A stretch of 64,000 nt of DNA from Amphiscolops sp. MND2022. Its lineage: Eukaryota. Location of the stretch: assembly GCA_964187785.1 (NCBI GenBank), contig OZ076416.1, positions 55,800,001-55,864,000 on the forward strand, given 5' to 3'. Positions 2,991 to 64,000 of the stretch are shown here, piece by piece. The notes beneath the pieces are model-generated. The model did no database searches and was not told the DNA's origin. It saw nothing but the letters and a program-made list of their open reading frames with translations. Position numbers and translations under genes: made by a program. The stretch's first letter is position 1. Every line of letters starts with the position of its first letter.

Positions 2991-3682
2991 TGTGTGATGA
3001 AGCCGAATGCCGATTCCCAAGGAATCCTGCCTTATTTGGATTTCCCCGTTTCAGAGAGGACGTTGAGTTGAACAAGGTGTGATTTCACGCGCGAGGTTTT
3101 CCCCGCGTGTCTAGCATAAAGTATTTAGACCTGGAGTGTATACTTGATTTATTAATCGCTTGTACCCTATCGATGCTTGACTTTTGATTTGAACTCCCAT
3201 TTTGATCAGTTTTTCTTTTATTTGTATCATGGCCGATTTCTTTGGATATCTCGCCAGTTGATAGACTGAGTTATTTCCTGAACTCAGCGATCCAGTAGTT
3301 CAATTTAATTATTACCGAGTATTTATTTTCCTTCAAATCTTTCCAGGGAGGTCCCATAAACGTAAACTAAGAAGTGACCAGACAACTAGTCATTTAGATG
3401 AAAAAGTCGCGAGCTCGACTAACGACGAAAACCTCCAACTGTCAGAAAGAGACTTTGAAGATATATCAAATAAAATTGACAACAAAATCTCTGAAGGGCT
3501 TCGGGATACTGAATTGAGTCAACGCGAAATACTAAGGCTAATTGAAAACCTATCGTCGAAGGTGGACAATCTGTCAAGCGTAACTTCTGAATAACGTTAA
3601 CTTACGACTAGGAATGAGAATAATGAAAACTCCGCGGAAGATTTAGAAGAAGTCGGTTTGAGTAGAAACGAGAGCTCCAACA
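2991..3682 (+). mobile_element. Possible solo-LTR-like fragment carrying a decayed gag N-terminal-like coiled-coil frame (second copy 6455-7146)
   Basis: Starts TGTG and ends CCAACA. It contains the ATG-less frame KRKLRSDQTT...ELSQREILRLIENLSSKVDNLSS, similar in character to the gag N-termini inside the LTRs of elements 1 and 2. No TSD or PBS was found. Confidence 0.3.
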
Positions 3683-8567: not shown

Positions 8568-9599
8568 TGTCATGCCTGACGCATGAAAATATCAAACAAT
8601 GATGTGGTCAACCATCCTGCATACCTGAACTAGAAACAAAATGTCGAAACAGTAAAAGAATGATGATGAAAGGGAAGAATGTGGTGGAGTCAACCACATC
8701 ATAAAACTCGAACTCGAATCTGCTAAAAAGCATCATTTCTATTCATTCCCCAAATAACTTTACTATTATCTCCCATATTTCATACATTTGTTATGCATGT
8801 TATTTAAATCAATCTCGTGAACTTTTAGTTAAAAGTGAAAGTAATGTGGCTGATACACCATCATCAGATTTCGTTCTGGTGCAGTTAGTCATGTAAACAA
8901 TTATCTACATTAACCATTCACATATATGATGCTAGTAGTGCAACCACATCATTATACCAAATTTGAGTCATGTAACCATAGCAACGTAACTACATTCATT
9001 TTGGTGCTGCGACCATATTGCGCAATTACTAACAAAGGTGCGAACGAAAAATAGAAATATGATTGGTTGATGTGGTCACGTGACCAACGTCGCCATAATT
9101 ATTACCAAGTGAAATAGTAACATCAGTAGATTTTGCGATAGATTACGATACAGTTGCTAAATACGTACCTCTCAGTTAAACACGATTTGTTACCAAAATA
9201 CTTAACCTTTCTCATAATCAATCAATACAACCTCAAAAATCCAATATCTCTTCAAAATGGTTAATACGAGATCCCAAGTAACAGACAACCAGCATACCTT
9301 CATGTGCCGAACAGATCGGCATAGCGATACCGAAAGTGAGAGCAGTGTCCCAGAAGTTCTCACGAGAGAACAGATGAGTGAGTTTGACAACGGGAATTTG
9401 TTGGATTACAGTGGCGAGTCAGAACGTCGAGCAGTAGATCAGAGATTTACTGAAATGACTAGACAAATAAGTGAACTGACAAACTTAGTTCTTGCTCTGA
9501 CCGAGAAAATATCGTCTAATGAAAAGCCATCCTCTAGCAATAGAGAAGGGAACGTACCTAACATCACCACATCAAATGAATCTGATACACGTTCCGACA
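8568..9599 (+). repeat. 5' LTR of element 1
   Basis: TGTCATG...CCGACA. Matches 22763-23791 apart from one 3-bp indel and about four substitutions seen by eye. Confidence 0.95.
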
Positions 9600-9612
9600 T
9601 GGTGACAGGAGT
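9600..9612 (+). promoter_or_regulatory. Primer-binding site TGGTGACAGGAGT (tRNA-Leu-like)
   Basis: TGG start directly after the LTR CA. One mismatch to the recalled complement of eukaryotic tRNA-Leu(CAG) 3' ends (TGGTGTCAGGAGT). The same TGGTGACAGGAG follows the element 2 LTR. Confidence 0.75.
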
Positions 9613-10779
9613 TCCAACAACCAGCCAACTACCGAACCCACCACGCCAATCCACCTCACAATACCCTCAGTCATCCGCTCAGCAGTTCGACGACATTGTC
9701 ACTGAAATCCACCACCTGAGGGACACGATGACGGACACGGTGCAACATCCAAAAATTTTGCACACACAAGTCCCACTATTCCGCGGAAACCGAGAAAAGT
9801 ACAACGAGTTTGAGCACCTGCTGCTCAACCACCTCAGGCCACACCAACACAAATTGTCAGAATAACAGAAACTGACATACTTCCAGAGCCTGTTACGCGA
9901 CGATGCCATTGAATTTTGGCAATCGCTGAAAATAACGAACCAGACAATACTGGCCCAAGTACTGCGTTACTTCAAGAAGGAATACGCAAAAGAAGATTTG
10001 AAGGAAGTGGCCAAATACAAATTCGACCAGATGCGCTACGACCCTTCAGCAGAGACCTTCAATGACTTCCTCAACAAGTTCAAAAAAGTCGCAAAGCAGG
10101 CATTTGGGGGACAAGTCCAGCGATATTACAGAGACGTTTCTATTTGCGAAACTCCCCGTTCAAATGCAAAACGATTTGGCCATGGCAGGCAAACATGATG
10201 CATCGATGGAGGAGATCAGGACATTTGTGCAGCGCAGATGTCAATATGCGCAGCTCATTCCTAATACAACCAGTGCGCAACCATTCAATCAGATAAGCGC
10301 ACCCCAGCCGAATGTAGCCACACCTCAGACATCAAACGTCCAAACCCAACAACCCAGGGATGCAAAACGAAAATTTGATGGCCAATGTCGCCACTGCGGA
10401 ATACATGGCCACAAGTGGGTTGAGTGCAGGAAACGCCTCCGGGAGGAAGCACAAACCAAACCCCAGGGCCAAAACCAGCAACAACCAACCCAACCCGCCC
10501 AAACTCAAGAGATCAAGCCCAGATATAACCCCAAACTTGTGTGCCAAATTTGTGGCAAAGTGGGACACTCCGCCCGAGATTGCTACTACAGGAACACGGG
10601 GACGTCCGCCTACCGAAGCGTCCCGTCCCTAAGCAATCGACCGAGGAAAACCGACAATTTAGAAGGGACTTCAAACAGACCAACAGTAGAGTCTACAACG
10701 CCAATGAAATGTCCCACACTGCCAACGATGACATCGAAGATGCTGAGGAAACAGAACGACACGATGACGTAGAAGATCC

Positions 10780-10786
10780 AAAAAAC
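10780..10786 (+). promoter_or_regulatory. -1 ribosomal frameshift heptamer A AAA AAC at the gag/pol overlap
   Basis: gag reads CCA AAA AAC TTC TAA. The -1 frame is open from 10768 through to the pol ORF at 11074 (translated by hand). Confidence 0.75.
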
Positions 10787-13700
10787 TTCTAAAGCCACGT
10801 CATCCTCCTCAAACATACAAAAGTGCGCTACTAAACCAACACCAACAAACTACTCCTCTGACCCGACTACATACTGCAAACCACACGGGGTGGCAGTCCC
10901 GTCCTCCTACTTACACTAAGGAAACTACTAACTTCGTCATCACGAGACACTCAACTGACAACTACACCATTAAACCGAAGGAGACCAAACGAAGACCTGA
11001 AGCCCACAACATCCAACACCCGATTTCAGATCGCACACTGCCTGACCAACCGAATGATGAGAAACGAACCACTATGTCAAAACCAGGAAACCAAAAGAAG
11101 AAACCGAAGTACGAAATACGCCAGTTGAGTGCCACCCTGCAACTCCACAAAAAGGACAAGATGTTATACGTACCACTTCAATTCCGCGAATATGAAAACT
11201 TCGGACTACTTGACACGGGAGCAATCCAAAGTGCTCTCTCAGAAGCGGAACTCCGCCGCATCCTCACAGCACACCCAGCCGCCCTCCTCCAGGAACTCCC
11301 TGCTCCGGAGTTCAAAGTCCAAATCGCCAATGGAAACATCGTTCCAGTGAGGAAACAAGTCCTACTACGATTCTTCATCGGGGGAAAAATCTTCGAAGAG
11401 ACATTCATGGTCCTCTCAACGATGGGGAATATACTCATTGGAATGTCATTCTTCAAAAAATACTCCGTTACCCTGGATTTAGCCAACAACATCGTCAAAT
11501 TCCCGGACATCACCCTCCAATTACGATCAGTCAACGGGAAATTCAAAAACAAACTACTCGAATTGAAGACAACTCAGAAGACTGTGATCAAACCCAATCA
11601 ACAAGTGTTCGTCCCGGTGGTGGTTGAACGCGACCTAGGCGACATCACTGGCACTGTCGAAGGACTACCAGCCTTTGAAAGACGCTCACATCTGTTGGTT
11701 TCTCCGGCTCTCAACGAGACCCAGGAGGGGCGGACTCATGTCCAGATCACAAACCCACTCGACTACCAAATTACCATCAATGTGGGTACACCAGTGGCAT
11801 CATTCAAAATAATGACACCGAAGCAAGCCAACAACCTCCAACCGATGACCAATCACCAACTAAACCTGATTTCCCAGTACCCAGATGATGCCGAAGCTGT
11901 CTTGAACCAAATCTTCCAGGATCCGACTACCAAATCAGATAGAAGATGGTACCCTACCCCTGAGACTTGTGACGACCCGTCAAAACTCAACAAGATTGAA
12001 AAACGAATCTATGACGAAATCGTCAAACTCAGGGCCGAGGAGAAACTAGATCCAACAGCAAGTGAAGAACAACGCCATGAATTTCTAGCAAATTTCCAGT
12101 GGGAACAATCAATACTGAGCCTTCACGAGAAACAGAAAATCGAGGCCCTATTGGTCAAGTACCATGATATATTCGCCAGACATAGACTGGACATAGGGAT
12201 CAACACCGAATTCAAGATAAAGTTGACTCCCAAACACGACGAACCAGTCTATGCTCAAAGCTTACCCACACCGACGAACCTGAAAGACGACTTACCGGTT
12301 GAATTGGCGTTGATGCAGGAGTACGGCATAATCACAACATTGCCGTACAGCAAGTACTCTTCACCTATCTTCGCCCAACGCAAACCAAATGGGAAGCTTA
12401 GAATCCTCGTAGACCTCAGACGGATCAATCACTTGCTGAAGAATGACTACAATCAGCACAACCATCCGGTGACGACGATGGCAGACGCAGCACAACACAT
12501 GGCAGGAAAGCGATATTTCTGCAAACTGGACTGTTCGCAAGCACACCATTGTTTGCAAATGGCAGATGAACAGTCAGACCAGTTACTCGCTTTCAACTTC
12601 GGAAGTAGGACGTTCGCCTACCTCAGACTAGCCCAAGGATTGAATCGATCACTATCAGCCTTCAACAGTACTGTTCGAGAGTACTTGGACCCCTTGGTCA
12701 AGGCCGACAAATGTGCCCAATACGTCGATGACATCGGCATTGCAGCCAACAATGTCGAAGAGCTTGTCGACAACATTGAGGCTGTGTTCATGAAAATCAA
12801 TCAAGCTGGCCTGAAACTGTCGATGGCCAAATGTGCTTTCGGACACCCTGAGATAGAATTCCTGGGACGTAGCATCACCTCCAAGGGAGTTGCCCCCATC
12901 TAAGAAAAAATTGACAAGTTTTTGAAAAACATCAAATTACCGACGTCTGTGAAATCTTTACAACGATACATTGGATTCGTCCAATTCTACCGCCAATACA
13001 TTCCATGCCTAGCAGAAAAACTTGTTCCACTCTACAAACTCCTACAGAAAGACGCCAAATTCGAACTAACGCAAGTCCACAAAGATGCCATGTTCGACAT
13101 CAATGAGAACATAGCAAACGCAGCCAAGATGTCCGTGCGACTACCACTTCCGGACAAACAGCTAGTGATCATGTGCGATGCTAGCGAGCATGCAGCTGGA
13201 TACGTTCTCTTGATCGAGGATTACACTGAGACGAATGACGGACCGACGAAGTCATACGCACCAGTAGCCTTTGGTTCACAAAGGTTTACTGAGGGCCAGA
13301 TGTCGCTCACGATTTTTGCAAAAGAGTTCCTGGCTATGCACTTCGCATTTGATGAGTTCGCTCATATCTTGTGGGGAGTGAAGAAACCGACAATCGTCAT
13401 GACTGACAACAAAGGCCTCACAAGATTCTTCCAGTCTAAACGAATACCTCCTAAACTGTGGAACTACTGCGACCAGGCCCTCCAATTCGGCTTTGTCCTG
13501 GCCCATGTACCTGGAGTCGAGAACCCAGCAGCTGACTACCTGTCCAGAATCGACATCCACCCAAAGGACAGGATCCACCTCAAGCTACACGACGAGATAC
13601 CAGTCTTCAAGGTTGAAATTGACTTGGCATCAAAAACACCCAAACAGGACGATGAGGAAGACGATTACATTCCAGACGCGACGTATGTGCCTGATGCTAC

Positions 13701-15723
13701 AACATCACCAAATCCAACGATGCAGTCACTCTTGGCGATGTTCCCTCAATGGTGTCACGAAGACGACGAACAGTACCGTAGACGCATTGATGACATCAAA
13801 ACCCAGGTGCAACCATTTGTAACGCCCTCTGACCCAGCACTGTTCTTCACCCGATTTTGCCAACGGAACCAGGTTCACGCGGTAAATCAGGTATGCCCTT
13901 CGGGGACTTCAGAAATTGTTAAGGCTCAAGGCGAAAACAGTGACGTTCAACGTGTAATTAGGATCCTTACTGTCCAAGAAACTCCTCCGAACCAAGTGAA
14001 CTTTACAAGTACCTTTTTCCAAAAACTCTTTAAGAACCGTAAAAGACTTGAAGTAGTGAACAACGCGTTGTACAGGCAGTTTTTGGACAACGTAGGAAAC
14101 TTAGCTTACCGACAAATTGTAGTTCCTCCAGAAACTACGGAAGCCATATTCAGGACGATGCATGGCGACCCCATGCAGGGACACCCTGGCGCTTCCAAAA
14201 TGTTAGGTGAACTAAGGAAAAGGTACTACATCCCGAACTTAGCTGAAAAGGTCCAAAACTTTGTAAACAACTGCAAAGACTGTATTAAAGCTAAACCTGT
14301 GAAACCTAACACCGTGAAACCACCGCTTGAACCGATATACGACCCTTGCAATGGTCCTGAAGACGTCCTGGAAATTGATCTCGTAGGTGAGTTACCGCGA
14401 TCTAATGGGTACTCACACATTCTGACGGCCTGCGATTACTTTTCACGATATCTGTTTGCCATTCCAATCCGTAAACCTGACGCAAAATCTGTCGTCGAGG
14501 CTCTGCTAGACATTTTCACAAAACACGCATATGTGCCAAAACACATCATCACTGACAAAAGATCTGCCTTCACCTCACAAGTAATAACTGAACTGATGGA
14601 AAAGGCTGGGATAAAAGTTTCCCACGCGACAATCAAACATGCCCAAACTATTGGGATGATCGAAAGGTCGCATCAACGTTTGAAACAGATTCTGAAAATA
14701 AACGTATCTGCCGACCGCCCTCAGTGGGACCGATACGTCAACCTCTCTGTGATGGCGCACAATACGACCTACCACCAAACTCTGAAATGTTCACCGACTG
14801 AAGTCTTCCACGGCCGCGTGCCATACAACGCACTAGACTTTAAATTTGGCAACCCTCTTAGTCCCCCGAGGAATGCCACTGATACACAGTCGTTAGTGGA
14901 CAACCTGAACACCAAATTCAAAGAAACTCACACCAATATCATCCGAGCCTTTCACAAGTACAAAGCGTACTATGACCGAAAGGCACAAGCATCACCATTA
15001 AAAGTAAACGACTTTGTTTTTTTACTGAATCCTAAAATCAGCACACAATCAGAAAAAATCCCTTTCAACTCTTTCAAATGGGAAGGACCTTACAAGGTAG
15101 TTAAGGTCTTGACACAATCGAATTATGTCATCCGAAAAATCGGTACCTTCAAGACGCAGTGCGTACATAGAATGCGGCTCCGCCCATTTGTACCTCACGA
15201 CAAAATTGAAGACGTGACGGATGACGTAAACCGACATTACAGTGATCCTGACGCAATTGACGATCAGTCAATATTCAACGATAATCTGCCTGCAATCGAA
15301 CGATCACCGCCAGCTGAAAACACATTTAAACTCGACACAAACGAAACTGAAGCAATCGCTTCCGAGCACGGAACAATTTATTACGAACACAAACGGGTTC
15401 ACGAGGTCCCACCTCTGTCTAACTCGCTTCGTGAAGCCATCCGCACCGAAAATACGTACCAAAATAGAACTGAAATTCAATCCGACGAACCACCTACATC
15501 GCTGCCTAATCATGAGTCTAAACAACAAATTCCGACACATAATGATGCGGAGTCAACCACATCATCTGCCGAAACACCTACACCGATAACACGCAACAAC
15601 ATTACTCGATACAGCCTTCGTGAGGCACCTGTGCCTAAAACGTTCGACAACTTCCTCGTTCACGAACTGCAAGCAAAGCCCGCCCTTTTAAACTTCATGC
15701 AACGCAAATCTGAAAGCCAATAG
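10780..15723 (+). pseudogene. pol: pol polyprotein (PR, RT, RNase H, IN) with one in-frame stop at 12901-12903
   Basis: PR LLDTGAIQS; RT FAYLRLAQGL and YVDD; RH CDAS, TDNK, ADYLSR; IN HGDPMQGH...CKDC, IDL, TDK, ERSH and GPY. ORFs 11074-12903 and 12922-15723 share a frame. Confidence 0.95.
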
Positions 15724-17319
15724 AAAATACATGCAATCATTACAATGTAGTCTATATCACCACATGCAGCAATCATACCATTGAATTATCCTATTTATTT
15801 TACACCATTCAGTGACGACTGATACTCACTGTCCTACATACTCAAGTTTACCGGCAGAGTAAAATGTTACTCTCTACCGAGACAGCTGAGCGCTAAAGTA
15901 AATACATGAAATGCAGTCACATACACCACATCACTCCAACCGGAAATTGTTAAGTACATGTAAAGCACGTACAAACGACCTACTAATTTATGCAATTCAC
16001 GAAAAATCCCAACCACACACTTTCAAAGGAAATGCTCGGCAATTTTGCACCCACCAATCCTAAATCAGCTAAACTAAACTGTTTTCAAACACGTCTCAGT
16101 CCATAGTTGAGTACAAAAAAGAAAACGCCGACTCGTTTAAGTTACGTCAATAGAACCTAGTCTCACACTTCCGCTCCAGAAAGCCATGATGTGGTTTGAC
16201 TGTGTGGGTGCGTCGTCAAAAGCGCGTCTGTGTGGTTGTACAAACATTCAGATGAAGCTTGCTCTTTAGCAAGTGGATTCGGTGTTAGTTTTGAAAGGGT
16301 TTTTGCGACGGCAAATAACCTTCCAAATGAACTGAAAGCAAAGCGAAACTTCTTAAGGACAGTAACATGCAGTCGTCACGCCAACTTCACCCGACAATTA
16401 AGTCGTGACACCCTCGTTCTTACTGGTGATTCGTAGGCCTCGCCTCGCGTCAGAAAGAACAAGGTACTTAAAGCACATGTAGTCACTATCACCACAAACC
16501 CGAAAATTCGAAACAAGGGATGGATCAGACCACCCCTTGTAAAAGAGAAAAAAAATCTGTTTAATGGACATGGGGAAACCCATCTTCCATTAAATTGACG
16601 TTAACATTTGACACACGTCACGAGTGATGACGTCTCATGACACACATCAGTGATGACGACGTCAGAACTAACGCTCAATTTTACGAGCATAACAACACAT
16701 ATAAAGCAAAAAAAAATGATTGGCACCTTAGAATGACACTTATGCGTGTAAACACCCGTTAAAACACACGCACTTAGAGTATATATAGCATGCAAAGCAT
16801 CTAATTCGATCATTGGGAAGGAGCGGTGCAGCTCCGTTCATTCACCTTGGTGTAACCACAGGGCGTCAATACCACTTTCCGAGACCTGTGGGTAAACCTC
16901 CGTGAATGAAATTCTGTCTAAATTGGTGGCTACGCAAGTAACCACCATACAATCTCACTGAAACAAAAAACAACTCTACTCAGCTTCCTGACAAATTGAC
17001 ACCAGCTAACGAAGCCCCCATGTAAAAAATTTGTATAACGTAAGCAACATGTAAATTAACCACCTGCTCACGCGTGAAATCAAAGCTGAGCCAAGAAATC
17101 AATCAGCACTACTAAAAGTAAGTAAACAACGCATGTAAAGTCTACATATAAACCATCAAGCATCTAGAGCGAGGAATACACAAACACCAAATAGTAACAG
17201 CAAAAGGCACGTCAACATGCCAAGAACAAATATCCCAACTTCAAACGTTTAATAATAAAAACAAAAAACAAATGCAAAATAATTGACTCAATCACGAAAT
17301 GTTCTCTATCCAGTTTCTT

Positions 17320-20300
17320 CTAATCTTGCTCATCCGATGAGTATAGTGCACAACGGCTTTGCCGTTTCTTTCCACTCACAACCACTTCATTAGCCGAGTC
17401 ATTATCGGAGCCACCAACGGTTGCTAACTGCAAGAACTTCTTGCCCCGAGGTTTTCCACCAGTCCGGCGCCCGCTAGACTGACGACTAGTAGACGGCCCT
17501 TCGCGAACTGCGCTCTTCACACTTTTCCGAATTGACGTCCTGCTTCGCTGCAACGACCGAATAGGGGTAGATCCACTTGCTGGCAACGTAACGTCTTCTT
17601 GTCGCCGAAAAACTTTCTTAACTGAGGTACCACGCTTAAGAACCGGGCTGCTACGCCTTCCGGGACGGGGAGGACTCAGCACTTCCACAAGATCAAGTTG
17701 CGCCAATACGTTCGACCGGTAATCATCTATCCGCACCGTGGTAGGGAGTGACAGTTCATTGGACAAAGTAGCATTACCACGTGCCAAGGCTTCCCCTAAC
17801 CCAGATTTCATCAGCTGATCACATGGTCTACTTCGGGCCTCATCGGATAATCGAGAGACCTGCATATCACTCGTCTCGCACACTCGTAGCAATCCAGTTA
17901 GAGTTTGACGCGTATGTCCCGCATAAGACTTGGCAAGCCAACTCCGAACAAAATGTAAACTGGAACGTAGGGTATCTACCGGCATCGCAACGTCCACATC
18001 ATCAACAAAATCTAGCTCATAAGTCCCAACTGCATTCAGTCCAAACAGAATGTTGACCACGGTCAACAACTCTTGACATCGCGACCAGTAAGGATAAGAG
18101 AACCACATAGTTACCACGTCGTCAACTACCGGTACATTTTCTGTCAACGTCCACTTCTTCTTGAAGACTTGTGTCACTTCCCGATATTGTCGTAGTACAG
18201 CAGTAACATCTTCATCATCAAGGAGTTGATATCTCGACAGAGTAGCAAACGTGCCAACCAGAGCATCGATACACCGATCGTCAGATCCTCTGTGAATCAA
18301 CTCTGGATCAAATGGGGTCATACTAAAGTGACTAATAGCACCCTGCTCCCATGCTCCTGTTACTTCCCGACAAACAACGCCCAACAATTTCTGAACCGAT
18401 CTATAAAAGAACGGCAACTGGGTTCGTACGTCGTATCGGAAATATTGCCCGAAGTGCAGTTTGTAAAGGCCCTCGTCCACTGTCACGTACTCGCAGTCTA
18501 CCGGTGTCAGCAGGGCTCTCACTTCAACTTCCGCAGGGATCACTGAAGGCGGATACACGAAACACATAAGTTTTCGGACGAATTGTGACAGCTCGCGCTC
18601 TGCTAACATGTTACTGTCTCTGCCACTTCTGCACAAACGCGGACAAGTCTCGACTACTGCAAACACAAAACAAAACACATGAATCAGCGTTCATACCCTC
18701 TTTTTTCCGACTTAGGATTACTTCACCAAAAAAGTCATATTGAAAAACGCGCCTATGTCTAGCCACTTACTACATCACACCAAATTCAAAACCCCAACAA
18801 AAAAAACAAAAAAAATCGAAACGTGTGACAACTAACGCAAATCCAGAATGAGTCGTAACACAGCAAACCGGGGGCGCATCATTGCATCGTCGAAAACTTG
18901 CACCTCAAGCGGAGTAACCAGACGCAGCTCAGAAGTCACGTTAGGCCTGTGAGTGCCAAAGTACACAGCTAGATCATTCCAGTGCTCAACGACTTCAGTA
19001 CACAATGAGGCCAACACAACCACATCACTCCCTCCAAAGCGAATGAACTGCAAAACAAAACACAGCTGAAAGTTTGACATCATCTACTTACTGTCATAGC
19101 CTACGCACCTAACGTTTCAATTTACCAAAAACAATAAAATATATCCGCGTATATATTAACAAACCAATGTCCTATACATAACCACATCATAAACGATAAT
19201 GCCAAGTACTTACTCGTCTAAGTTTCGGCAATCGATCCATGAAACCCTCCTGCACTACAGCGGCTAAACGAACACGCAAGTAGTCCAACACGTTGAGTGG
19301 GTCGAGACCGCCAAATTCCGCTAGGAATTGCTTCCTCACGAGATCCAACAACCATATTTGGGTCACTCGACCGACAACCAAGGGATCAGTGATTCCAATT
19401 GCTGCTGCTAGAGCATGTCCAATTCGGGTCTCAGACTCAGTGCTATACATCTTGATATTTGAGGCATGTTGCAAACTGAGTAACACTGGTACTACATTGG
19501 CAATCATACTCGTCTCCCACCCAGCTCCGGCGGCCACTACGCCAAAAACCACAGTCTTGATCGCACAGTCTCCGACCACATGACACTCACAGATCCAATC
19601 AGAGTTCTGTCTTCTCAAGCTCACACCAACGTTCTTACCACGGGATAGCAGACAGTCCAACTGTTCGACGACGAACCGGTACAGTCCGTACAACACCAAA
19701 CTCTGTAAACACAGCCAATCACACAAATGAGGAGCTCACCTTCACATCATAGATTAACACAAAAACAACTGTACCCATATCAACGCGTTAAGAAACCCCC
19801 CCTTTGACAACCAAAGCCCGCAAACACGCATTCAGTACTAAAGCCCAAAAACAGCAAATGTATACACGTACCTGACATCGGGCATAAGTCAAGGAGCGAC
19901 ACTCGACACGTAGCTGAGCACTCATACCATCTCGCCATGACTCCACCATCCTCATCACAGAACCGAACGAAGCAACATTGCAAAAGCTGCTTATGAATTG
20001 GCCTAACCACAGGTAAGCCGCACTCTCTGTAGGCAATGTTGGTCTTTCACCAGCAGACGCTTCGGCCTCTTCAATCGCGACCCTCTCATCCACGGACAAA
20101 CTCAACTCGGACTCCAGATACACTGGAGGCTCTGTCATCCTCTCTTGGCGAATTCGTCTATCCTCCTCTGCGGTTACTGGGCGGCAAGCTTTATCAAGTA
20201 GTGGCATTTGCATTATTATGCGATACTTTTGCTCAAGGCGCGTATGTCCTACGCCTCGCCAATGTTCCCACAACGAAGACAAGCCACGCCCAGCAATGCT

Positions 20301-21781
20301 GAGATCTACTTTACAGAGGAGACATCTAGCGTAGCCATCCACCACTCGTTTGTGTCGGGGGAAGCCCACGAAAGTCCCGACCACGCCTGAGACAAAGTAT
20401 GAAGGCTTCAACGTCTTCACTTTCCTCACTCGCGCTGAAATAATCGACACACTCACACGCAAACCAGCAACCCAAAATAGTGCTAGCAACGACTCCTAAC
20501 CCCCCGTTAACTTCAAAAAAAAATGTGTGTAGTCTCCTATATGCCTTGAGTTTGGGAACTGTTACTAAAACCCCTCCCATGATCTTTTGAGATTCTTTAC
20601 CAGGTTTTGATGAGGTAGCAGCTCCTCCACCCGTCGACACCAACGACCGCACTCCTCCGAACGCAGTTGGCACATCGGACAACTGACTTGGACTGAAGGA
20701 CGCTGCACTACTAACGGCCACAGGACTGATCGACTCTTCCAACTGAACGGGAGGCACAGCTGGTACGACCTGATCCGCCCCGCTCCCAGAAGTCGTTGCA
20801 ACCCCCGCAAATTGGTCCATAGCCGCCTTTAACTTCTGCACACAGTCTTCGATTGCCAGCACACCAGCAGGACCCAACTCTCCGAACTTCGCATCTATTA
20901 CTGCTTTGATTGTCTCTGACAATTCTTTCGTCATTCGTGCCAGCGAAGACTCCATTTCATCCCTTGTCACGGGCACGCCAGCAGAAGTTCCTACAACACA
21001 AATCAGTTTTTCCGCCATATGACGTGTGTCACACGACATGCGGACCACAGCCGACCCAAACACCGAACCAAGACTAGCAGTATACTCGATATGATGTATG
21101 ACAACCGACCACTTACCCAATTCACCAGCAAGGACGGAACTGAAGCGATCTTCCACAGCAGTTATTTTGGGTGAACCACCCGCGGCATCACCTCGTTTCG
21201 AAGCCAGCAGTGAGCGGAGTAACTTTACGACGTCTACAAGCGATAACTCTTCTGAAGCACAATAATGTCTCATTAGCCACCTCATCAGTTACCCAGAGCA
21301 TTAGATCCCGGGAAGTACACACGCCTCAATGCTAGTACCGCTCAAACGACATACTGGCTTACAATAATTCAGAATGCTCTGAAGGAAAGATAACCTTTAT
21401 CGGTTATTATTTCGAAAAAACTACTTGTGACCCACGACTACGGAAGTCACTGTCCTACAAAACTACCTGAGCGCTAATTACACACAGCGAAGGGCAAAAA
21501 GAAAAGAAATAGTGAGACTACTCACGGAATTCACTCGATAGCGCAATCTCCAACAACGTGTTAGCTGCCTCATTGTTGGAAGCAGTCACCTTGCCCGCAA
21601 AGCGACAACACGTTCCAAAACGCTCTCCTGACAGGGCTTCCTCGACAGCAGCCGGCAATTCACTACCTATCGAAGAGAAACTGAACTGCTCCAGCTCAGT
21701 GAGCACTCCTTCTGCTGCCAACACAACTGCAGCTACTTCTGCATCAGCCTGGGACGGCCCTTCCTGCGCCGGTGAACTCAT
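17320..21781 (-). CDS. Six-exon antisense cargo gene, predicted 1168 aa: coiled-coil N-terminus, C2H2/BED-like zinc finger, degenerate hAT-transposase-like body, basic low-complexity tail
   Basis: Exons 21781-21526, 21251-20601, 20434-19872, 19702-19214, 19047-18837 and 18656-17320 total 3507 nt. All five GT-AG introns (274, 166, 169, 166, 180 bp) join ORF-track frames in phase. Zinc finger CLLC-x16-H-x5-H at about 20324-20244. Confidence 0.8.
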
Positions 21782-22473
21782 GACAGTAATAACAAGCAAG
21801 TCTGAAAAGTAATCAACTTGAGGCTAATGAACTGAAAGCACACAGTCGTTTGCGATTTACTAAGGTTCAAAGTAACTTCCAATGATGATGTGGACTGATC
21901 ACCCACATTGTCTATGCAAAGTAACTACCCAAAAAATCCAAAGGGATAACCTAATTCCTGAATATCACCAACCACACTACTCCAAAAAGGGCCAAAGCCT
22001 ACCCGAAAAATCCTCCAAAATCACAATACGACTCCCTGGCTTATCCTAATTATAGCCCACTTGATCATTGATACAATCACTCAGAAGGCCGCGGCCGAAC
22101 TGAATTGCCGAAGAATCGCACAAAAGAATATACTGGAGAAATTTTTGCTTCTCGTATTTGGCATCGACGAAGAATTGTTTACAGATCGCACGATGTTCCA
22201 CTACAACCACTTCCGAACGATTACCGGATGAGCCGAGTAATTATATGACGCTGCCACGTTAGATTAATTTCCGGCAAATTCATTCTTATTTTAACTCTCT
22301 TACTGCAAACAATGCGCACGATTGGATGACGTGGCTACTCTCGCCACATTGACTCTATATTTACTCTTTACCGAAGTGGAACAGCCAATGCGTGACCAAC
22401 ATTTTCTTCGCTCACTCGCCATATCGAGCCGAAGCGACAATCTACTCGAATATTTTCAATCACGAAATCAATT

Positions 22474-22630
22474 CGCCACTACCAATGTGGTTACTATAAC
22501 AACATCGCTGCTTATTTCCAACCGTGATGTCATCCCGCCACTACCAATGTTGTTGCTATAACAACATCACTGCTCATTTCCAACCACGAAGTCAACTCGC
22601 CACTACTAATGTGGTCACCATAACAACATG
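22474..22630. repeat. 62-bp tandem repeat, about 2.5 copies, carrying CCAAT motifs
   Basis: cgccactac(c/t)aatgt starts at 22474, 22536 and 22598, between the antisense gene start and the 3' LTR. Confidence 0.85.
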
Positions 22631-22747
22631 AGCGCTCAATCTAATTAACGAATACAGCATTTTCAACCTTGCTCATTAGCATACCGCGTCCAATCTACCA
22701 ACCAACTGAACGAGACATTTCGCCATTTCAGCCACATGTTCTTTTTC

Positions 22748-22762
22748 AAAAAAGACCCGGAG
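22748..22762 (+). promoter_or_regulatory. Polypurine-tract-like sequence AAAAAAGACCCGGAG
   Basis: Purine-rich run directly before the 3' LTR TG; interrupted by CCC. Confidence 0.5.
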
Positions 22763-23791
22763 TGTCATGCCTGACGCATGAAAATATCAAACAATGATGT
22801 GGTCAACCATCCTGCATACCTGAACTAGAAACAAAATGTCGAAACAGTAAAAGAATGATGATGAAAGGGAAGAATGTGGTGGAGTCAACCACATCATAAA
22901 ACTCGAACTCGAATCTGCTAAGCATCATTTCTATTCATTCCCCAAATAACTTTACTTTTATCTCCCATATTTCATACATTTGTTATGCATGTTATTTAAA
23001 TCAATCTCGTGAACTTTTAGTTAAAAGTGAAAGTAAAATGGCTGATACACCATCATCAGATTTCGTTCTGGTGCAGTTAGTCATGTAAACAATTATATAC
23101 ATTAACCATTCACATATATGATGCTAGTAGTGCAACCACATCATTATACCAAATTTGAGTCATGTAACCATAGCAACGTAACTACATTCATTTTGGTGCT
23201 GCGACCATATTGCGCAATTACTAACAAAGGTGCGAACGAAAAATAGAAATATGATTGGTTGATGTGGTCACGTGACCAACGTCGCCATAATTATTACCAA
23301 GTGAAATAGTAACATCAGTAGATTTTGCGATAGATTACGATACAGTTGCTAAATACGTACCTCTCAGTTAAACACGATTTGTTACCAAAATACTTAACCT
23401 TTCTCATAATCAATCAATACAACCTCAAAAATCCAATATCTCTTCAAAATGGTTAATACGAGATCCCAAGTAACAGACAACCAGCATACCTTCATGTGCC
23501 GAACAGATCGGCATAGCGATACCGAAAGTGAGAGCAGTGTCCCAGAAGTTCTCACGAGAGAACAGATGAGTGAGTTTGACAACGGGAATTTGTTGGATTA
23601 CAGTGGCGAGTCAGAACGTCGAGCAGTAGATCAGAGATTTACTGAAATGACTAGACAAATAAGTGAACTGACAAACTTAGTTCTTGCTCTGACCGAGAAA
23701 ATATCGTCTAATGAAAAGCCATCCTCTAGCAATAGAGAAGGGAACGTACCTAACATCACCACATCAAATGAATCTGATACACGTTCCGACA
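22763..23791 (+). repeat. 3' LTR of element 1; its gag N-terminal frame (23449-23880) reads out into flanking DNA
   Basis: Direct repeat of 8568-9599. Identity stops exactly at CCGACA (23791). Confidence 0.95.
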
Positions 23792-24853
23792 GGACTCAGT
23801 GGAGTTCGTTTGATCATTGCGAGTCGTTTCAGCGACCACGTAGTCCACATATTACGTTCGAGAGATGTGATGTTAAATAGAATGAGAGAACATTAAAAAC
23901 CGAAAGTCGACTAAATTTGCACAATGAGTCAAAAGCAGGTCGCAGAAAGCGAAAAAGTGCCTGGAAATGTTGATTTTTGTTAATTACATCGCTCATTTAG
24001 GTCAAATTATGTCGATGTGATAAAAAATGTCGCGATGGAATACATTTATACACCGATTTTCAGCACTTTGAGGTAAACCTAACCTGTTTTTGCTAAGATC
24101 CTTGTCGCAGGCTGCCGCCTGTGACGGCATGTATTATCAAATTGCTCCGGAGAACGATCAAAGTAACCCCGGACCAGGAGTACTCCCTATATGAAACACT
24201 TTAAACGCTACTTCTTGTATTATCTATTTCACTTCAAATACAATTTCATCTAAAACATAATAAATCAACAATTGGTTAATTGCCTACCCCAATATTGTAA
24301 TATTTTGACCACTGGTCAATTTGACATCAACGTACTACTTTAGTTATTCTGAATATTAAATTAGTTGTCATTTCATTCATTGTAATTTCATTTGCTTAGT
24401 AACTCTAATACTTTGACGATGCGACAAATATTTCAGGTGAGATACATTTGTATTCAATCAATAAGCGATGTTGAAATGAGCTTTAATAGCTTGCATTACA
24501 GGTTAAAAGATTGGAAGCGCGTTCAACTGACTCAACACTGCAGTCAAGTTGACGCGCGGTCTTAATATTTTCTGACCAAACAGAGCTCAGAATGAACCAA
24601 TCATTGCTTGGCCAGAATTTGCATTTCACTAGATATGACACTCACACTTAATGAAATATTGCACTTAACTTAGTTTTAGTTACATGTAAAAAGTAAGTGT
24701 GATGTTTTGATGTTATTTATAGTTCTCCCATCAGGATGACGCAATGTCTGGCGACCTATTTATTTTAGTATCTATAACCTAACAAAAAACTCAAAAACTA
24801 TTTTTAAAATGAACATATTCTAAACTTAGCAACACTACACTCAACACTATGGT

Positions 24854-56917: not shown

Positions 56918-57069
56918 AGGAAATGGGGACATATCCGATGCACGCTTTATACTTTTCTAGAAATATGACCCGAGGAATTCTATCTGCGGCAATTCGACTT
57001 GTTTCCAGTCATAACTCTTATTTTCAGAGTCCTATTTTGTCACTTCTCTCAAGACGATTCCTCAGAAGA

Positions 57070-57352
57070 TGTCGAGCGGTAGTCTAAGATGCTTGGGACG
57101 CAATCCACTTTTGGTTAAGAAAACTAAACTGTTCTTTATCTGTATTATTCGTTCTTATGATTATAAAATTACTTTTCTCAGTTGGTGAAGTATTCAATAA
57201 ATGTCAAATAGTTTCAAATGTCAAAGTCAAATTGTTTCAACTTGTATGTTTATATTTATATAAAAGGTCATTGGTAGGCATTCAAGATATTCCTTCTCAA
57301 TTTTGATGTTTTCTGTTTTCGGTCAAAGAAGATCATCATGGAACACATGACA
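57070..57352 (-). repeat. Putative 3' LTR of element 3 (283 bp)
   Basis: Minus strand TGTCATG...CTCGACA with a TATA-like TATATAAATATAAA, directly after a purine tract. The partner LTR is outside the window. Confidence 0.65.
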
Positions 57353-57364
57353 CTTCCTCCCATC
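57353..57364 (-). promoter_or_regulatory. Polypurine tract GATGGGAGGAAG
   Basis: Plus strand cttcctcccatc abuts catgaca, so on the minus strand the purine run directly precedes TGTCATG. Confidence 0.7.
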
Positions 57365-57683: not shown

Positions 57684-60041
57684 TCAATCAATAATTGGAT
57701 GAAAGCTCACGTTCGGGGGGATTTGATTAGGAGCGACAAGAGGTTTGCCGCCAGTAAGCTGGCTGCGCACATTATCAATCATGCTACTGCTGAGTTGTGT
57801 ATTTCCATCAGTGAAATTACCTATGACGGAATCAGCCATGAAAGAGGTGGATGGTTGTTGCAAATGAATCATTTTATTTTTGGAAGGGACTCGAAAATTG
57901 AAGCGGTGTCCCAGTTTTTTCTCAAGGTCAGGCAAGGCCGCTTTATGTTCGTCTGGAACATCGAGACGTGGTTTTACATTGAATTTGTTTTTGATCAGTT
58001 TTTTGGGAAACAGTCTGTCAGCTAGATGATACTTGTGATAGATGTACATGAATAGTAAATGCAGTATTGTCGAAACAATAAAAACGACGATAGTTAGAGT
58101 GAAAGAAACTTTAAAGGGGACATATTGATTAAATTCGCGGGTGAGCGAGGGTTTCAAAAGTTTCATATCACTCGCTAGAGGACGGGCTATGTCCACTAAT
58201 CGGTTGACTTCACGAACTCTTGGACTATGTACGAGTTCTTTACGTACTTGTTTCAAAAGCTTCACTCCTGCTTCTGCTTTCGAGTCATATAAGGGTAAAT
58301 CCTCTAAAGGGGGAACTTCCATGATTAAGGATGCTAGAGGGTTTGGCAATGAAACTTGCAGTTTTATTGCGGGTATATGAGAACAACTTGATAAGTCGGA
58401 CCTGATTTTTATGTGTTTTGTCATGATTTGCATGCCACATTCAAGAGTGATAATACAGATACGACAGCCTGCAAATGATTGTGTTTTCGATGAAGCGGCT
58501 GTTGCATGAGATTCGCGGAATATGAAATCATCATTGGCAGATGTTTTTAGCCAGATACCAAAACCTAAGTTAGTGGCTTGTTCAGTAGATGGTAAAGAAA
58601 CTAAGGAAGTATCACAAACGGAAAGTGCATCAACAGAGGAATCAAAGAAGAGCGTCGCTATGCATGAAGAGTGACCCATTTCGGTCGGAAAAGTTTCTGC
58701 GCATATGCGATATTTTGAAGAGCCGAGGCATTGTTCGAATTGTGCTTCGGATAGGACTGACGATTCCATTTGGTCTTCTGAAATGGCTAAATACGGTGCC
58801 TCAATATCCCACTTGAGAGCCAATTGAGGGTCATCAGGGTAAGGCATCGGAATTAGTTTAGCCTCAAATAGTGTGAAAACGGTTTGTCGAGAAGCCAACG
58901 GTATACTAAGGGTCATCAAGATTCCTTCTGGCACTGTAACGGCATCCGCGAGCAAACGAGAATCATAGTATGAAAGGAGGTCGGTCATCGGAATAGCTAA
59001 CGATAGGCGATCGGTTGCCTTGCTTTGGTCAATCGCTACTCGTTCCAAGATCACGAGGAGTGATTCCATCGGAATAAGCGACATTGGTAGATGACCTCGC
59101 AAAATAACAGGAATAGAGTTAAGAAAGTTCATGCGAAAAGCATATAAAGCTGAGCGAAAGGCTTTGATGCTAGCATGAACCATACTAAGGAGCGAAGATA
59201 AAGTATCAAAATTGAAATTCAACTGTTGGTTAGAGAATAACATTTGATTACAGTCGCGTAAAATATGAAAGTTATTTTCGAACACGTCAAATTGTTCTTG
59301 TATGATGGCCCAATTGCGGTTTTGAGTTTCGGACATTTCAGCTTGTATCGCATGAAGAGCTGCGAGCTCGTTTTTCACTAGGAAGAATTTTTCGTCAGTG
59401 TTCAGTTGAAACTCTGTGACAAATTGTGTCAGAACATCTTGATAATCTGAAAGGCTCCGTATGTTGGCAGCATTGGCTTGGGCTTGATCGTGACAGCCCC
59501 CAAAAATTCCTTGAAGACCACAAGAGTCGGAACTTCTCATAGCGATACCACCTCCAAAAAGTCCAACAGCTGCCAGAGCAGCGAGGCCTACACCAGCGCC
59601 TCGTCGTTTACGTGGTTGTTGTTCAGAAGGTGGACGTAAAAACATTGAGGTTTCATTTCGGATAGTATTTAGGTCGTTTTCCGATTCGTGAAGCTCATGA
59701 TTGATTTGAAAGAGCATCCAATTGACGTTGAATCCGGAAGAATTTGATGAAAAGTGACTAGAGAAATTCAGGGGACAAAAAATAGAGGGCAAGTCCCACA
59801 TTTGTGAAAGGCGGTGAATCAGTTGTTCGATATCTGGTTTCAATGAAAATTCATACGTGGGAAAAGGAACAAGGAATTCCACACTGATAAATTTTTCTGT
59901 AAGCAAGATTTTATTGCGCTCGTTAAATAGTATCCCTTTTTCTAGAAGATCATTAGGGTTATTAGAGGCTTCAATGTTAGATGACCATTGGCTAGAAACG
60001 GAAGCAGGAGTGAAAGCAAGGTAGGCAAGAAAGAACAGCAT
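57684..60041 (-). CDS. env: Envelope glycoprotein, class I fusion protein of the F type (baculovirus F / errantivirus env-like), 785 aa, intact
   Basis: Signal peptide MLFFLAYLAFTPASVSS; furin site RKRR then hydrophobic fusion peptide GAGVGLAALAAVGLFGGGIA; heptad-rich region; Cys-rich segment LSIPL...PYLAIS...C..C..SC; TM FTLTIVVFIVSTILHLLFMYIY; sequons NFS, NSS, NET. Confidence 0.9.
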   Translation of the reverse strand: MLFFLAYLAFTPASVSSQWSSNIEASNNPNDLLEKGILFNERNKILLTEKFISVEFLVPFPTYEFSLKPDIEQLIHRLSQMWDLPSIFCPLNFSSHFSSNSSGFNVNWMLFQINHELHESENDLNTIRNETSMFLRPPSEQQPRKRRGAGVGLAALAAVGLFGGGIAMRSSDSCGLQGIFGGCHDQAQANAANIRSLSDYQDVLTQFVTEFQLNTDEKFFLVKNELAALHAIQAEMSETQNRNWAIIQEQFDVFENNFHILRDCNQMLFSNQQLNFNFDTLSSLLSMVHASIKAFRSALYAFRMNFLNSIPVILRGHLPMSLIPMESLLVILERVAIDQSKATDRLSLAIPMTDLLSYYDSRLLADAVTVPEGILMTLSIPLASRQTVFTLFEAKLIPMPYPDDPQLALKWDIEAPYLAISEDQMESSVLSEAQFEQCLGSSKYRICAETFPTEMGHSSCIATLFFDSSVDALSVCDTSLVSLPSTEQATNLGFGIWLKTSANDDFIFRESHATAASSKTQSFAGCRICIITLECGMQIMTKHIKIRSDLSSCSHIPAIKLQVSLPNPLASLIMEVPPLEDLPLYDSKAEAGVKLLKQVRKELVHSPRVREVNRLVDIARPLASDMKLLKPSLTREFNQYVPFKVSFTLTIVVFIVSTILHLLFMYIYHKYHLADRLFPKKLIKNKFNVKPRLDVPDEHKAALPDLEKKLGHRFNFRVPSKNKMIHLQQPSTSFMADSVIGNFTDGNTQLSSSMIDNVRSQLTGGKPLVAPNQIPPNVSFHPIID

Positions 60042-60076
60042 GATTGCTCAGTTATGGTTCAAACCAGAAAATGAGC

Positions 60077-60434: not shown

Positions 60435-60737
60435 ATGTTGAAAATGTTCATTGTTGCTGCCGTGTGTGTTATGGCCTGTCTTCCATGCGAAGAAAAGCTG
60501 TGGCGAGGAAAAAGTATATGGTGCTGCCAAAACGGAACCAAATTAGAAGTTCAAGGAAAAGTTGTATGGAGCGCACGCATACCACCAATGTGTATAAAAA
60601 AGCAACTGATGGAAAAAAAAGAAGAAAGAGATACAGCAAAAATGGTTATCAAAACAGCATTATTCCTGTTGGGAAGTGTGATCGGATGTGTCTGCTGCGG
60701 TTGTTTGTGGCGAAAACGACGAAATCGACAAAATTGA
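60435..60737 (+). CDS. Small (100 aa) type I membrane protein, antisense accessory ORF of element 3
   Basis: aaaaATG start just after a ttttcag acceptor; hydrophobic N-terminus MLKMFIVAAVCVMACLP; TM TALFLLGSVIG; Cys cluster CVCCGC; polybasic tail RKRRNR. Confidence 0.55.
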   Translation: MLKMFIVAAVCVMACLPCEEKLWRGKSIWCCQNGTKLEVQGKVVWSARIPPMCIKKQLMEKKEERDTAKMVIKTALFLLGSVIGCVCCGCLWRKRRNRQN

Positions 60738-61023: not shown

Positions 61024-61311
61024 TTATAGTTGTTCATACTGGTACTTGAGGGCTCTGCGGAGTCTGATTATTTTAATAATGCCTCGGAGACCATGCGAGC
61101 GAGGCATAGTAAAGTTTTCTGAATGAAGTAGCAGCGTGAATTCGATCCATCTGGGCGAACCATAAAGGAGGACAACTTCAGCTCCAGAGGCAAGTGTGAG
61201 GGTTACAGTAGAATCTTCTGCATAATGAACTCCTGTGACATTGTAGTCAAGGCCTGTCTTAAAACAGGTCCATTGGAACTGGATAGGGAATTGAAGTGTT
61301 AGGAGACCCAT
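61024..61311 (-). CDS. Unknown 95-aa ORF (MGLLTLQFP...; track ORF from 61398), same strand as env
   Basis: Open, compositionally diverse frame inside an otherwise AT-rich stretch; no recognised motif. Confidence 0.3.
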   Translation of the reverse strand: MGLLTLQFPIQFQWTCFKTGLDYNVTGVHYAEDSTVTLTLASGAEVVLLYGSPRWIEFTLLLHSENFTMPRSHGLRGIIKIIRLRRALKYQYEQL

Positions 61312-61516
61312 TTGCAGGAAGGAGAATTTGAAAGAACAAAAAGACGAAAATGATAAAACAAAGAAGCGATAAGTATTTGAAGCAAATGGCTGACTCAAAA
61401 TGAGTTAATTAAACAAAATGATGTGACAAAAGTTCAAACGCAAATAAACAGTGGAGTTAGTAAGTAAATATCAGAAAGGAAGCGAACGTTCGATAAAACT
61501 GAAAGAAAACATCAAA

Positions 61517-62885
61517 ATGCTTGGTATTGCGAGACTCAAACATGAACAAAACAAATATGTTTCAGAGCCAATGGAGCCTTTAATGTATGCAGCAATCATT
61601 AAGATGGTAAAAAGTGGAGAAGTAGATGAAATATTAACGGAAAAGGAGAAATTGACATGGAAAGCCCGTATTCTGGAATACAGTGTGCGTGCCGATGGGG
61701 GCCTTTTATGGAACGGGCTGAAAGTACCAACCCTGGAACAAATCGAACAGGTGTTACAGCCTGTACACTTCTCCGGTAAGAGGCATCTGAAGGACAAGAG
61801 AGTGCTACGAAAGAAATTAAGCGATCTTGGCTTTGTGCTACCCAAATATTTAGGTGGCTTAGAACGAGCCTGCACGCTGTAAGTACATTGTTATGAAGAA
61901 ATGTGCAAGAAATTATGGTGAATATCTCGAAAGCCGAAAACAATCGAAATATGGTGTTTGCTAATTTCAGCTTTCTACATAATTGTCCTGACTGTTTCTG
62001 GTCATTTCATCAGGGACATGCATGGCAACAAGTGGCATGTGTAAAGAAGGCTACGCGGCTGCGGCTATGCGAAAAATTGGGCTTTACCCACATAGGCATT
62101 CCAGATGATTACTGCGGGAGTAAAGTCGTGGGGCTGGGAGAACCAGCCGAAAAAAATTGTAAAGCTATCTTAGCTACTGGAGGAGGGGAATGTTGGTTCT
62201 CCACCATATTTTATCTACTTGTGGGGAAAAAGAGTGGTAAGAATGAGTGATGTATGTAATATCAGCAGACATAAAAATGAAACACGAGAAAACTCTGTGT
62301 GTTTAGATAAAAAACGGAACGCCAGTGACTTAAAGAGGTTACGGAGTGCTATTGGGGAAACAATGAGAACCGAAGAATTTAATAAATTATGTGAACGAAA
62401 ACTGGGATATACAACTTCTGCATGGGAAATTGAGGCCATTAAGACTTCAAAACTGTCGGTTGGAGAACCGTGGGTAAGGAGACCATAAGTCCAGCGAAAA
62501 AATGACCAGAAAAATATTTCATGATGTTGTGTTTCAGATGTTGGGTACCGCTATGTACCTAAAAGTGGATTTGCTAGTGTTCTGGCAATACGAAAGTGGG
62601 CGTGGATGGATACGGTATTCTGCGGAAGAGACAGAGAGTTTCGGTCGCGAGACATATTTGATTCAATGTATGCATTCCGCTGTCTACAAGGCGTTCCATT
62701 GCGAGCCGTTATGTGAATGGCCAATTGAAGAGTTAGTATTGTTAAACTCGGAAGGTTGTAAACGTGCGAGAAGTGATATCGATGGTGTATTGCTAGGAAG
62801 GATAAGTGCTATAAGCGGCCATATGAACGTGGCGGTTGTGTGGCAAAAAATGCCCGTCCACGCTGGACGTAAGAAAAAACTCTGA
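61517..62885 (+). CDS. Four-exon antisense gene, predicted 380 aa: integrase-type H2C2 zinc-binding module plus OTU-like cysteine protease domain
   Basis: Exons 61517-61878, 61971-62236, 62307-62473 and 62538-62885 total 1143 nt. Introns of 92, 70 and 64 bp (GTAAGT/GTAAGA/GTAAGG ... AG) all preserve frame. Splicing completes H..H...CPDC. Candidate catalytic Cys in GGGECWFSTI (62191) and His in AFHCEPL (62697). Confidence 0.7.
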
Positions 62886-63354: not shown

Positions 63355-64000
63355 TTACGATCGAATAGGCTGAAAAATGACGATTTTAATGTTTGAGTTG
63401 AAAAAAATTTGATATAAGAGGGAGAAAACAGTTGGCCAATGGAGTTTATCATAGCCGTTACCAAGTCGTGGAAGGCCTATTTCTGTAATATTATGGCGCT
63501 CCATATGGCGCTTCATGGCGAGAAGGCTCATTTGAAGAGTATCATAGGAAGAGCGATGAAAAAATTTTCGTTTCGTGACTAAATTGTAGATGAATTTGTT
63601 TGTAGAATGATCATAACACGCAATCAAGGATCCCGGTGGGGGTCTCGTAAGAGTCACTTTGTGAAGATTTTGTACCGCTGGATAGCGTGGCGATACAGCA
63701 GCCGCCAAGCCTGTATAATTTGCCAAATCGGAGGAACCGCAATACGCAAAGGATGTATTTGTAGATAGAATATTTGATTGAGAAAAACAGAATTTTGGAT
63801 AGTTTGTGGACGCCACAATTGCATTTACATCATTATTTGACAATCGCTTTTTCAAATTCGTTAGCGAGTAGCGTGCTTTTACTTCCTTTTGTCGCCGAAG
63901 GTACTCAGGTGGCGTTTCAGATTGCCCTGAGTGCGTAGATGGTCTTGAACTATGGACCGGAGATGGCCCCGATGATTGCATCATAGTAGAGTGACTGGTT
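63355..64000 (-). CDS. TARG1/OARD1 (Poa1p-like) macrodomain at the end of a frame that stays open to the window edge (probably the pol C-terminus)
   Basis: AYCGSSDL..TGLA, FIYNLVTKRK, YDTLQMSL.AMK, I.LPRLGNGYDKLHW match the recalled TARG1 pattern, including the Lys (VTK) and Asp (GYD) dyad. No upstream stop between 63984 and 64000. Confidence 0.9.
   Translation of the reverse strand, partial: TSHSTMMQSSGPSPVHSSRPSTHSGQSETPPEYLRRQKEVKARYSLTNLKKRLSNNDVNAIVASTNYPKFCFSQSNILSTNTSFAYCGSSDLANYTGLAAAVSPRYPAVQNLHKVTLTRPPPGSLIACYDHSTNKFIYNLVTKRKFFHRSSYDTLQMSLLAMKRHMERHNITEIGLPRLGNGYDKLHWPTVFSLLYQIFFNSNIKIVIFQPIRS

Follow-up and report, generated by a model that had tools for sequence, protein, structure and literature searches.

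An accessory gene family with predicted integrase-type zinc and OTU protease domains is carried by gypsy-like, BEL/Pao and Polinton elements in one animal genome

Antisense extra ORFs of LTR retrotransposons are a puzzle, resembling no known protein. In a 64,000-nucleotide stretch of contig OZ076416.1 from Amphiscolops sp. MND2022 (hereafter the window), an initial annotation had joined four short ORFs at 61517-62885 (+) into one 380-aa antisense frame through three canonical introns, and had proposed that the product fuses an integrase-like zinc module to an OTU-like protease. This locus raises the question of whether these frames form a real gene, what that gene encodes and how it could serve the element that carries it.

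An intron-bearing frame antisense to a gypsy-like element

Self-blast of the window and adjoining stretches placed the frame in a 14.5-kb element on the minus strand, bounded by 351-bp LTRs that are 99.4% identical; the 3' LTR lies at 57007..57357 (-) and its partner 14.15 kb away, past the window. The element has PBS-like and PPT-like ends and the Pfam domain order zf-CCHC (gag), protease, dUTPase, RVT_1, RNase H, H2C2 and rve. By its LTRs, gag and PR-RT-RH-IN order, a classification made without an RT tree, the carrier is a Ty3/gypsy-like LTR retrotransposon. The 3' end of pol occupies 63355..64000 (-) and continues past the window; in this copy it is interrupted by frameshifts as well as by a short inversion (L029, ~2749-3197), whose foldback repeats measure 265 and 175 bp. 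The dUTPase sits between protease and RT (L029:3651-5237, -; Pfam E 3.9e-5). An extra C-terminal domain of pol at 63358-63800 (-), present in the window's clade and without a match in the divergent clade L086-L097, is presumably macro-like, with no Pfam match. The env-like ORF (57684..60047, -; 787 aa) has homologues in related copies and, by eye, a signal peptide, a basic cleavage site, a hydrophobic peptide and a TM segment; it matched nothing in Pfam or the PDB.

The 3.3-kb gap between pol and the env-like ORF holds the OTU-like gene, in antisense. A second antisense accessory ORF of ~100 aa (60435..60737, +), with tblastn matches in 23 of 47 loci, encodes a signal peptide, a C.....WRG....CC.NGT motif, a TM segment and a basic tail; it gave nothing above the Pfam cut-off and belongs to no known family. 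Head-to-head with the OTU-like gene and 260 nt from it lies a conserved sense ORF of 95 aa (61024..61311, -), with matches in 12 of 47 loci and nothing above the Pfam cut-off, and the spacer between the two may be a bidirectional promoter. Elsewhere in the window, at 9218-24000, a second gypsy-like element with gag and pol on the + strand is followed by several ORFs on the minus strand (17320-21288; 182-456 aa), which may form a further antisense accessory region.

The sums behind the four-exon frame are correct. Counted from 61517, the exons (61517-61878, 61971-62236, 62307-62473 and 62538-62885) total 1143 nt, or 380 codons plus TGA. All three introns, at 61879..61970 (92 nt, phase 2), 62237..62306 (70 nt, phase 1) and 62474..62537 (64 nt, phase 0), read GTAAG...YAG, and none has a length divisible by 3. 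Coding exon 1 (61571..61878, +) would encode an integrase-type N-terminal domain with zinc His residues at 61766 and 61784; exon 2 (61971..62236, +) contributes a CxxC at 61984/61993, a linker with a conserved LC.K/RLG motif and the predicted catalytic Cys (62191); exon 3 (62307..62473, +) corresponds to the helical lobe of an OTU domain; and exon 4 (62538..62885, +) corresponds to the beta lobe, with the predicted catalytic His (62697) and Glu (62703).

A DNA search of the genome gave 28 matches, four others at 99%, and protein searches of the same genome with exon 2 and with exon 4 of divergent copies gave at least 150 matches each. We picked 35 divergent loci to cover the range of matches, dropped nine in which an exon was split or missing, and scored the remaining 26. 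All six GT/AG sites were present in 22 of these 26 copies. Across the 22 copies, 124 of 132 splice sites fell on the exact predicted base, where the chance of GT or AG is ~6-9% by composition and the copies are partly interdependent; the other eight sites are the intron-2 acceptors of one clade, moved by 3-6 nt. Among 23 copies, intron lengths range from 61 to 137 nt, identity of the inner intron to the window is 42-51% (raw values, with no shuffled baseline), and identity to the window is 50-90% at second codon positions and 28-54% at third positions. dN/dS was 0.07 and 0.06 for the window against L007 and L012, respectively, and 0.10-0.18 in six of ten other pairs; two further pairs were saturated, and two near-identical pairs with few changes gave 0.30 and 0.79. 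The exons are under purifying selection. An overlapping minus-strand gene was considered as the source of the conservation and ruled out, as divergence falls at third positions of the + strand.

The place of the gene is equally stable. At all 35 loci it runs antisense to whichever pol or env match lies closest, and at 31 of them pol and env both flank it, in order, with identity down to ~48% for pol and ~38% for env. A relative, P0066, reads across junction 2 without intron 2; P0066 itself was not found in the window's genome with one query. The four exons recur, with frameshifts, on a metagenome contig (L161), and word-index searches returned only unnamed ENA proteins. One copy (L167:4385-7881) has exons 1-2 tandemly present three times. 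The conservation pattern supports splicing, and we are very confident that the predicted exons make up a real spliced gene.

The initially proposed extent of the gene holds at its exon-intron junctions but needs correcting at both ends. The conserved start is the second Met, at 61571; the upstream start at 61517 shows no conservation. A YAG ends no more than 12 nt before the equivalent of Met 61571 in 21 of 25 copies, against a background of 36%, and the first 18 codons of the 380-codon frame therefore probably sit inside a 5'-UTR intron. In the window, the likely 3' splice site of this intron is the TTTCAG at 61563..61565 (+), 5 nt ahead of the conserved ATG, with donor candidates near 61456-61460. 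At the other end, conservation reaches 62732 in exon 4. The final ~50 codons are a family-specific tail without conservation, exon 4 encoding 65-68 aa in 16 of 22 copies versus 115 in the window. The conserved core protein would thus be about 312 aa.

Predicted zinc and OTU domains in the protein and its BEL/Pao relative

Removal of intron 1 had been predicted to complete a zinc motif, and this prediction stood: the motif, H-x5-H-x35-C-x2-C, spans the intron, and HHCC is kept in 23 of 23 copies. A linker of ~65 aa separates the CxxC from the OTU Cys, leaving no DDE core between them. The OTU-like motifs quoted in the initial annotation are all present in the order given there. The predicted catalytic Cys, in G-x-C, is found in 23 of 23 copies and aligns with the GDGNC/ANGNC of the BEL family described below. 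The predicted catalytic His is found in 22 of 23 copies, with Gln in one (L100), and the residue two positions after it is Glu in all 23 (H-C-E in 22, Q-C-E in one). The Asp that usually stands three residues before the Cys of an OTU domain is indeed missing, as had been cautioned, with Gly in 20 of 22 copies and Ala and Glu in one each. This caveat carries less weight than first supposed, since a solved viral OTU (vOTU) uses only the backbone amide of the Asp and has its third catalytic residue at His+2 (PMC3744425). The aromatic residue of the W/Y-G/A motif is apparently absent as well, by counting from a conserved helix against P0104, L050 and L051. TYMV PRO, an OTU without the Trp, is a poor deubiquitinase (PMC3744425).

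Direct searches with the window family gave little. None of the window exons, taken one by one, rose above any Pfam cut-off; a read-through of a relative had no Pfam OTU match; and the window-family profile found no OTU in the PDB, where sequence searches yielded nothing or weak matches. A profile search of 1.84 billion proteins returned 115 hits, almost all of them short fragments of family members. Among them was a triple-OTU protein, P0104, at E 4.8e-5, which itself matches Pfam OTU at E 2.5e-15.

A Pfam OTU search of the window's genome hit 23 places, several of them uninterrupted ORFs of 325-347 aa convergent with a BEL/Pao pol. This BEL accessory family has 116 matches in the same genome, and in all 21 fetched loci holding the gene it lies antisense beside the BEL integrase. 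Its carrier has Pao peptidase A17 (E 1e-46), DUF5641 (E 2e-30), a single gag-pol and 312-bp LTRs that are 99.4% identical, and is a BEL/Pao element. The ORFs L046 and L047 pass Pfam OTU (27 bits versus a cut-off of 23.3) and L141 falls below it (15 bits); against the integrase HHCC domain PF17921, L046 scored E 0.1, below the cut-off. In three BEL-type genes, L141 (4416-4566), L143 and L144, a YAG likewise precedes the conserved Met by 6-19 nt, adjacent to the 3' LTR, a layout that suggests an antisense promoter in the LTR and an intron in the 5' UTR. Searches of IMG/VR gave no BEL-type relative. OTU domains occur in animal Helitrons, and three very long ORFs of 2244-2747 aa with canonical OTU domains in the same genome (L044, L050 and L051) are, we presume, Helitron-like.

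The window and BEL families are related along most of their length. In a search of 324 ORFs, the window-family profile picked out a BEL antisense ORF, one with a Pfam OTU score of 27.5 bits, at E 1.7e-9 and over 271 of 315 positions. Comparison by hhalign gave 89.7% for the OTU half and 87.6% for the zinc half. The two families line up in their Cys, His and HHCC columns. The BEL subfamily keeps the canonical GDGNC and has H-V-D at the His site. Structure prediction, suggested at the outset as a check, worked for the BEL homologue, which folds as an OTU (pLDDT 78, from an input alignment that contained window-family rows), but not for a window-family read-through that retained two introns (pLDDT 41), whose best fold-search Z of 5.7 is meaningless. 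The C-terminal part of the BEL model matched OTUD1 (Z 10.1, rmsd 4.0, 120 aa) as well as OTUD3 and nairovirus OTUs, and every row shown by Foldseek was an OTU. Residues 1-106 matched the integrase NTDs of foamy virus PFV (Z 7.2, rmsd 2.8, 82 aa), Ty3 (Z 6.8, rmsd 4.0, 96 aa) and MLV (Z 4.8). The BEL profile found only OTUD1/3/5 in the PDB, at E 0.2-0.5, and the BEL protein had no usable match in the ESM Atlas.

The proposed union of an integrase-like zinc module with an OTU-like protease is thus supported by profile searches, by hhalign and by the modelled fold of the BEL homologue, and it is through this homologue that both the OTU and the integrase-NTD folds of the gene family are supported. 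We consider an OTU fold highly probable. That the protein is an active protease with a predicted Cys-His-Glu triad seems likely, and a ubiquitin or ubiquitin-like substrate is predicted with less assurance, as somewhat better than an even bet.

A Polinton carrier and exchange of alleles

Six copies of one gene subfamily have no pol or env match inside the element that carries them. This element measures 17-25 kb, with TIRs of 141 bp that start AGTAGT and, in five of the six copies, exact 6-bp TSDs; the gene begins ~400 nt in from one of its ends. The element encodes an rve integrase and a Pox_A32 ATPase above the Pfam cut-off, along with motifs that we take, by their pattern, to be those of PolB, with no Pfam or PDB match; a 474-aa ORF, considered as a capsid protein, has no Pfam or PHROG match. 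With TIRs, a 6-bp TSD, PolB, rve and a packaging ATPase, features that define the group (PMC6431247), the third carrier is a Polinton/Maverick. All three introns of its gene are at the same positions as in the gypsy copies. A tree of Polinton and gypsy genes, with three near-duplicate rows excluded, was a polytomy that favoured no direction of transfer (AU p 0.26). Neither of the two small ORFs that neighbour the gene in the window had a tblastn match inside the Polinton copies. Between the OTU gene and PolB, five of the six copies have a 700-bp tandem array with 2.4-7.4 units (e.g. L169:6082-10000).

Comparison of carriers with one another revealed that the gene and its backbone have separate histories. 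Among 136 interdependent pairs of gypsy-type elements, 28 combine 90-100% identity in the integrase core with just 45-73% in the accessory protein. At the nucleotide level, flanks of 88-98% identity surround ~2.5 kb that is 65-70% identical or unalignable, as in the window and L117, where a divergent gene region sits in a near-identical backbone. The same holds for a BEL pair, L141 and L149, with 98% identity in pol and 55% in the accessory protein. The gene is swapped as a cassette between near-identical backbones. Synonymous sites between swapped alleles are saturated, indicating that old alleles moved onto young backbones.

What the gene may do, and how it compares with known systems

The reading that we favour, at a probability of roughly 0.55, is that this is a conserved, spliced antisense accessory gene whose product joins an integrase-type NTD to a predicted OTU deubiquitinase-like domain, acts on host-side targets and protects its carrier. 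The mRNA would arise from a + strand promoter ahead of 61571. The introns would survive retrotransposition by the logic of splicing, as the RNA packaged as the genome has minus-strand sense and would not be spliced there; retrotransposition reporters use the same orientation logic (PMC12786077). The spliced product would be a protein of ~312-362 aa, in which the zinc domain, without a DDE core, could tether the enzyme to DNA, to chromatin or to a partner in the nucleus. A nuclear enzyme of this kind might then reverse ubiquitin-driven silencing or degradation in trans. Action in trans on the host side would account both for the retention of the gene in three unrelated element types and for the exchange of divergent alleles. 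A role in host counter-defence is tentative, at slightly less than even odds in our estimate. More speculative still is the full picture of a portable anti-silencing deubiquitinase that circulates as an allelic cassette among gypsy, BEL/Pao and Polinton elements of one genome, its introns kept by LTR elements through their antisense hold, in the manner of phage anti-defence cassettes.

The initial annotation had offered the element's own integrase as one target, and a helper of that kind is the first rival to consider: the zinc domain would dock on the integrase or intasome and the OTU domain would strip ubiquitin and so stabilise the integrase. An N-terminal domain with an integrase NTD fold, as in the model of the BEL homologue, would suit such a partner, and Ginger1 transposases fuse an OTU domain to the integrase itself (PMC2836005). 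However, the gene rides with three unrelated integrases, those of gypsy, BEL and Polinton elements, and its divergent alleles swap beside near-constant integrase cores, which favours a host-side target and makes own-integrase targeting unlikely. Moreover, a profile of exon 1 gave no score for the zinc domain of the carrier's integrase, so the zinc module is not a recent duplicate of it. Old, saturated alleles on near-identical backbones, in gypsy and BEL elements alike, could instead mark self-restraint or competition among elements, with a DDE-less NTD that poisons or controls integration complexes and alleles that define exclusion or incompatibility types, perhaps in concert with the two conserved small ORFs of the same variable interval. 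A host arms race accounts for allele exchange equally well, though, and the Polinton copies have the gene but no match to either small ORF; we hold this reading to be distinctly unlikely.

The remaining rivals concern the enzyme itself. An OTU-fold protease could act on a substrate other than ubiquitin, for example in processing an element or host protein, as does the OTU-fold processing proteinase TYMV PRO (PMC3744425), or could be a catalytically weak scaffold. The replacement of the -3 Asp by Gly, Ala or Glu and the apparent lack of the W/Y-G/A motif point this way, but the Cys, the His and the acidic His+2 are nearly invariant in both families and the BEL subfamily retains the canonical GDGNC, leaving such a protein improbable. 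The domain set also resembles a Ginger1 transposase minus its DDE core, as would be expected of a dead Ginger-like fragment, or of chance frames, carried neutrally. Yet dN/dS is low, the splice sites are kept while the intron interiors have diverged, and the gene holds a fixed position across families whose pol has diverged to ~48% identity. Provided that the alignments are right, this selection pattern rules out a dead fragment or chance frames, a reading to which we give hardly any credence.

If the enzyme is a deubiquitinase directed against host defences, the protein that it acts on would mark a step of transposon silencing in animals that depends on ubiquitin, and the swapping of alleles would be a natural record of that conflict. 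The locus also bears on the elements themselves: a retroelement can hold a multi-intron gene over long evolutionary time, and one gene can pass between retrotransposons and a DNA virus-like element.

Several known systems share parts of this arrangement; in the literature searched, which did not extend to Repbase Reports, subscription journals or supplements, we found no accessory gene combining an integrase NTD with an OTU domain in LTR elements or Polintons (PMC9289625 and PMC8220671 serve as background only). Nairovirus vOTU, OTUD1/OTUD3, yeast Otu1 and TYMV PRO resemble the protein in the fold of its homologue, the Cys at a helix start and the acidic His+2. They differ in that here Gly replaces the -3 Asp, the W/Y-G/A motif is apparently absent, an integrase NTD is fused to the domain, and activity is a prediction. 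Closest in domain content are the Ginger1 DNA transposases (Bao, Kapitonov and Jurka, 2010), which have an integrase-type N-terminal extension, an H2C2 finger, a C-terminal OTU domain and one to four mostly GT-AG introns (PMC2836005). As in Ginger1, an integrase-type NTD with a zinc finger and a C-terminal OTU domain are joined in one intron-bearing gene. Unlike Ginger1, the gene described here has no DDE core, encodes ~312 aa rather than 500-800, and is a passenger in LTR elements and a Polinton (the latter with 6-bp TSDs), without TIRs or a 4-bp TSD of its own. No full Ginger donor was seen among 81 NTD matches, weak long-ORF matches aside.

The ORF3 enzymes of bdelloid rotifers, a GDSL esterase and a DEDDy exonuclease, are common to LTR and Penelope-like elements (PMC5408684) and, like the gene described here, are enzymatic accessory genes common to unrelated mobile elements. 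The enzymes are different, however, and those ORFs lie downstream of pol; the available part of that report describes no antisense orientation, introns or DNA-virus-like carrier. In plants, Grande gene23, RIRE2, Retand and PvRetro13 have antisense ORFs between pol and the 3' LTR that are conserved across copies, and Grande has a separate antisense promoter (PMC7264820). According to the available part of the same source, these ORFs have no clear similarity to known proteins, and spliced antisense transcripts are still to be sought. Position, orientation and conservation are thus the same in the plant elements and here, whereas the gene described here has three or four introns, resides in animal gypsy and BEL elements, and specifies a recognisable enzyme whose catalytic residues can be tested.
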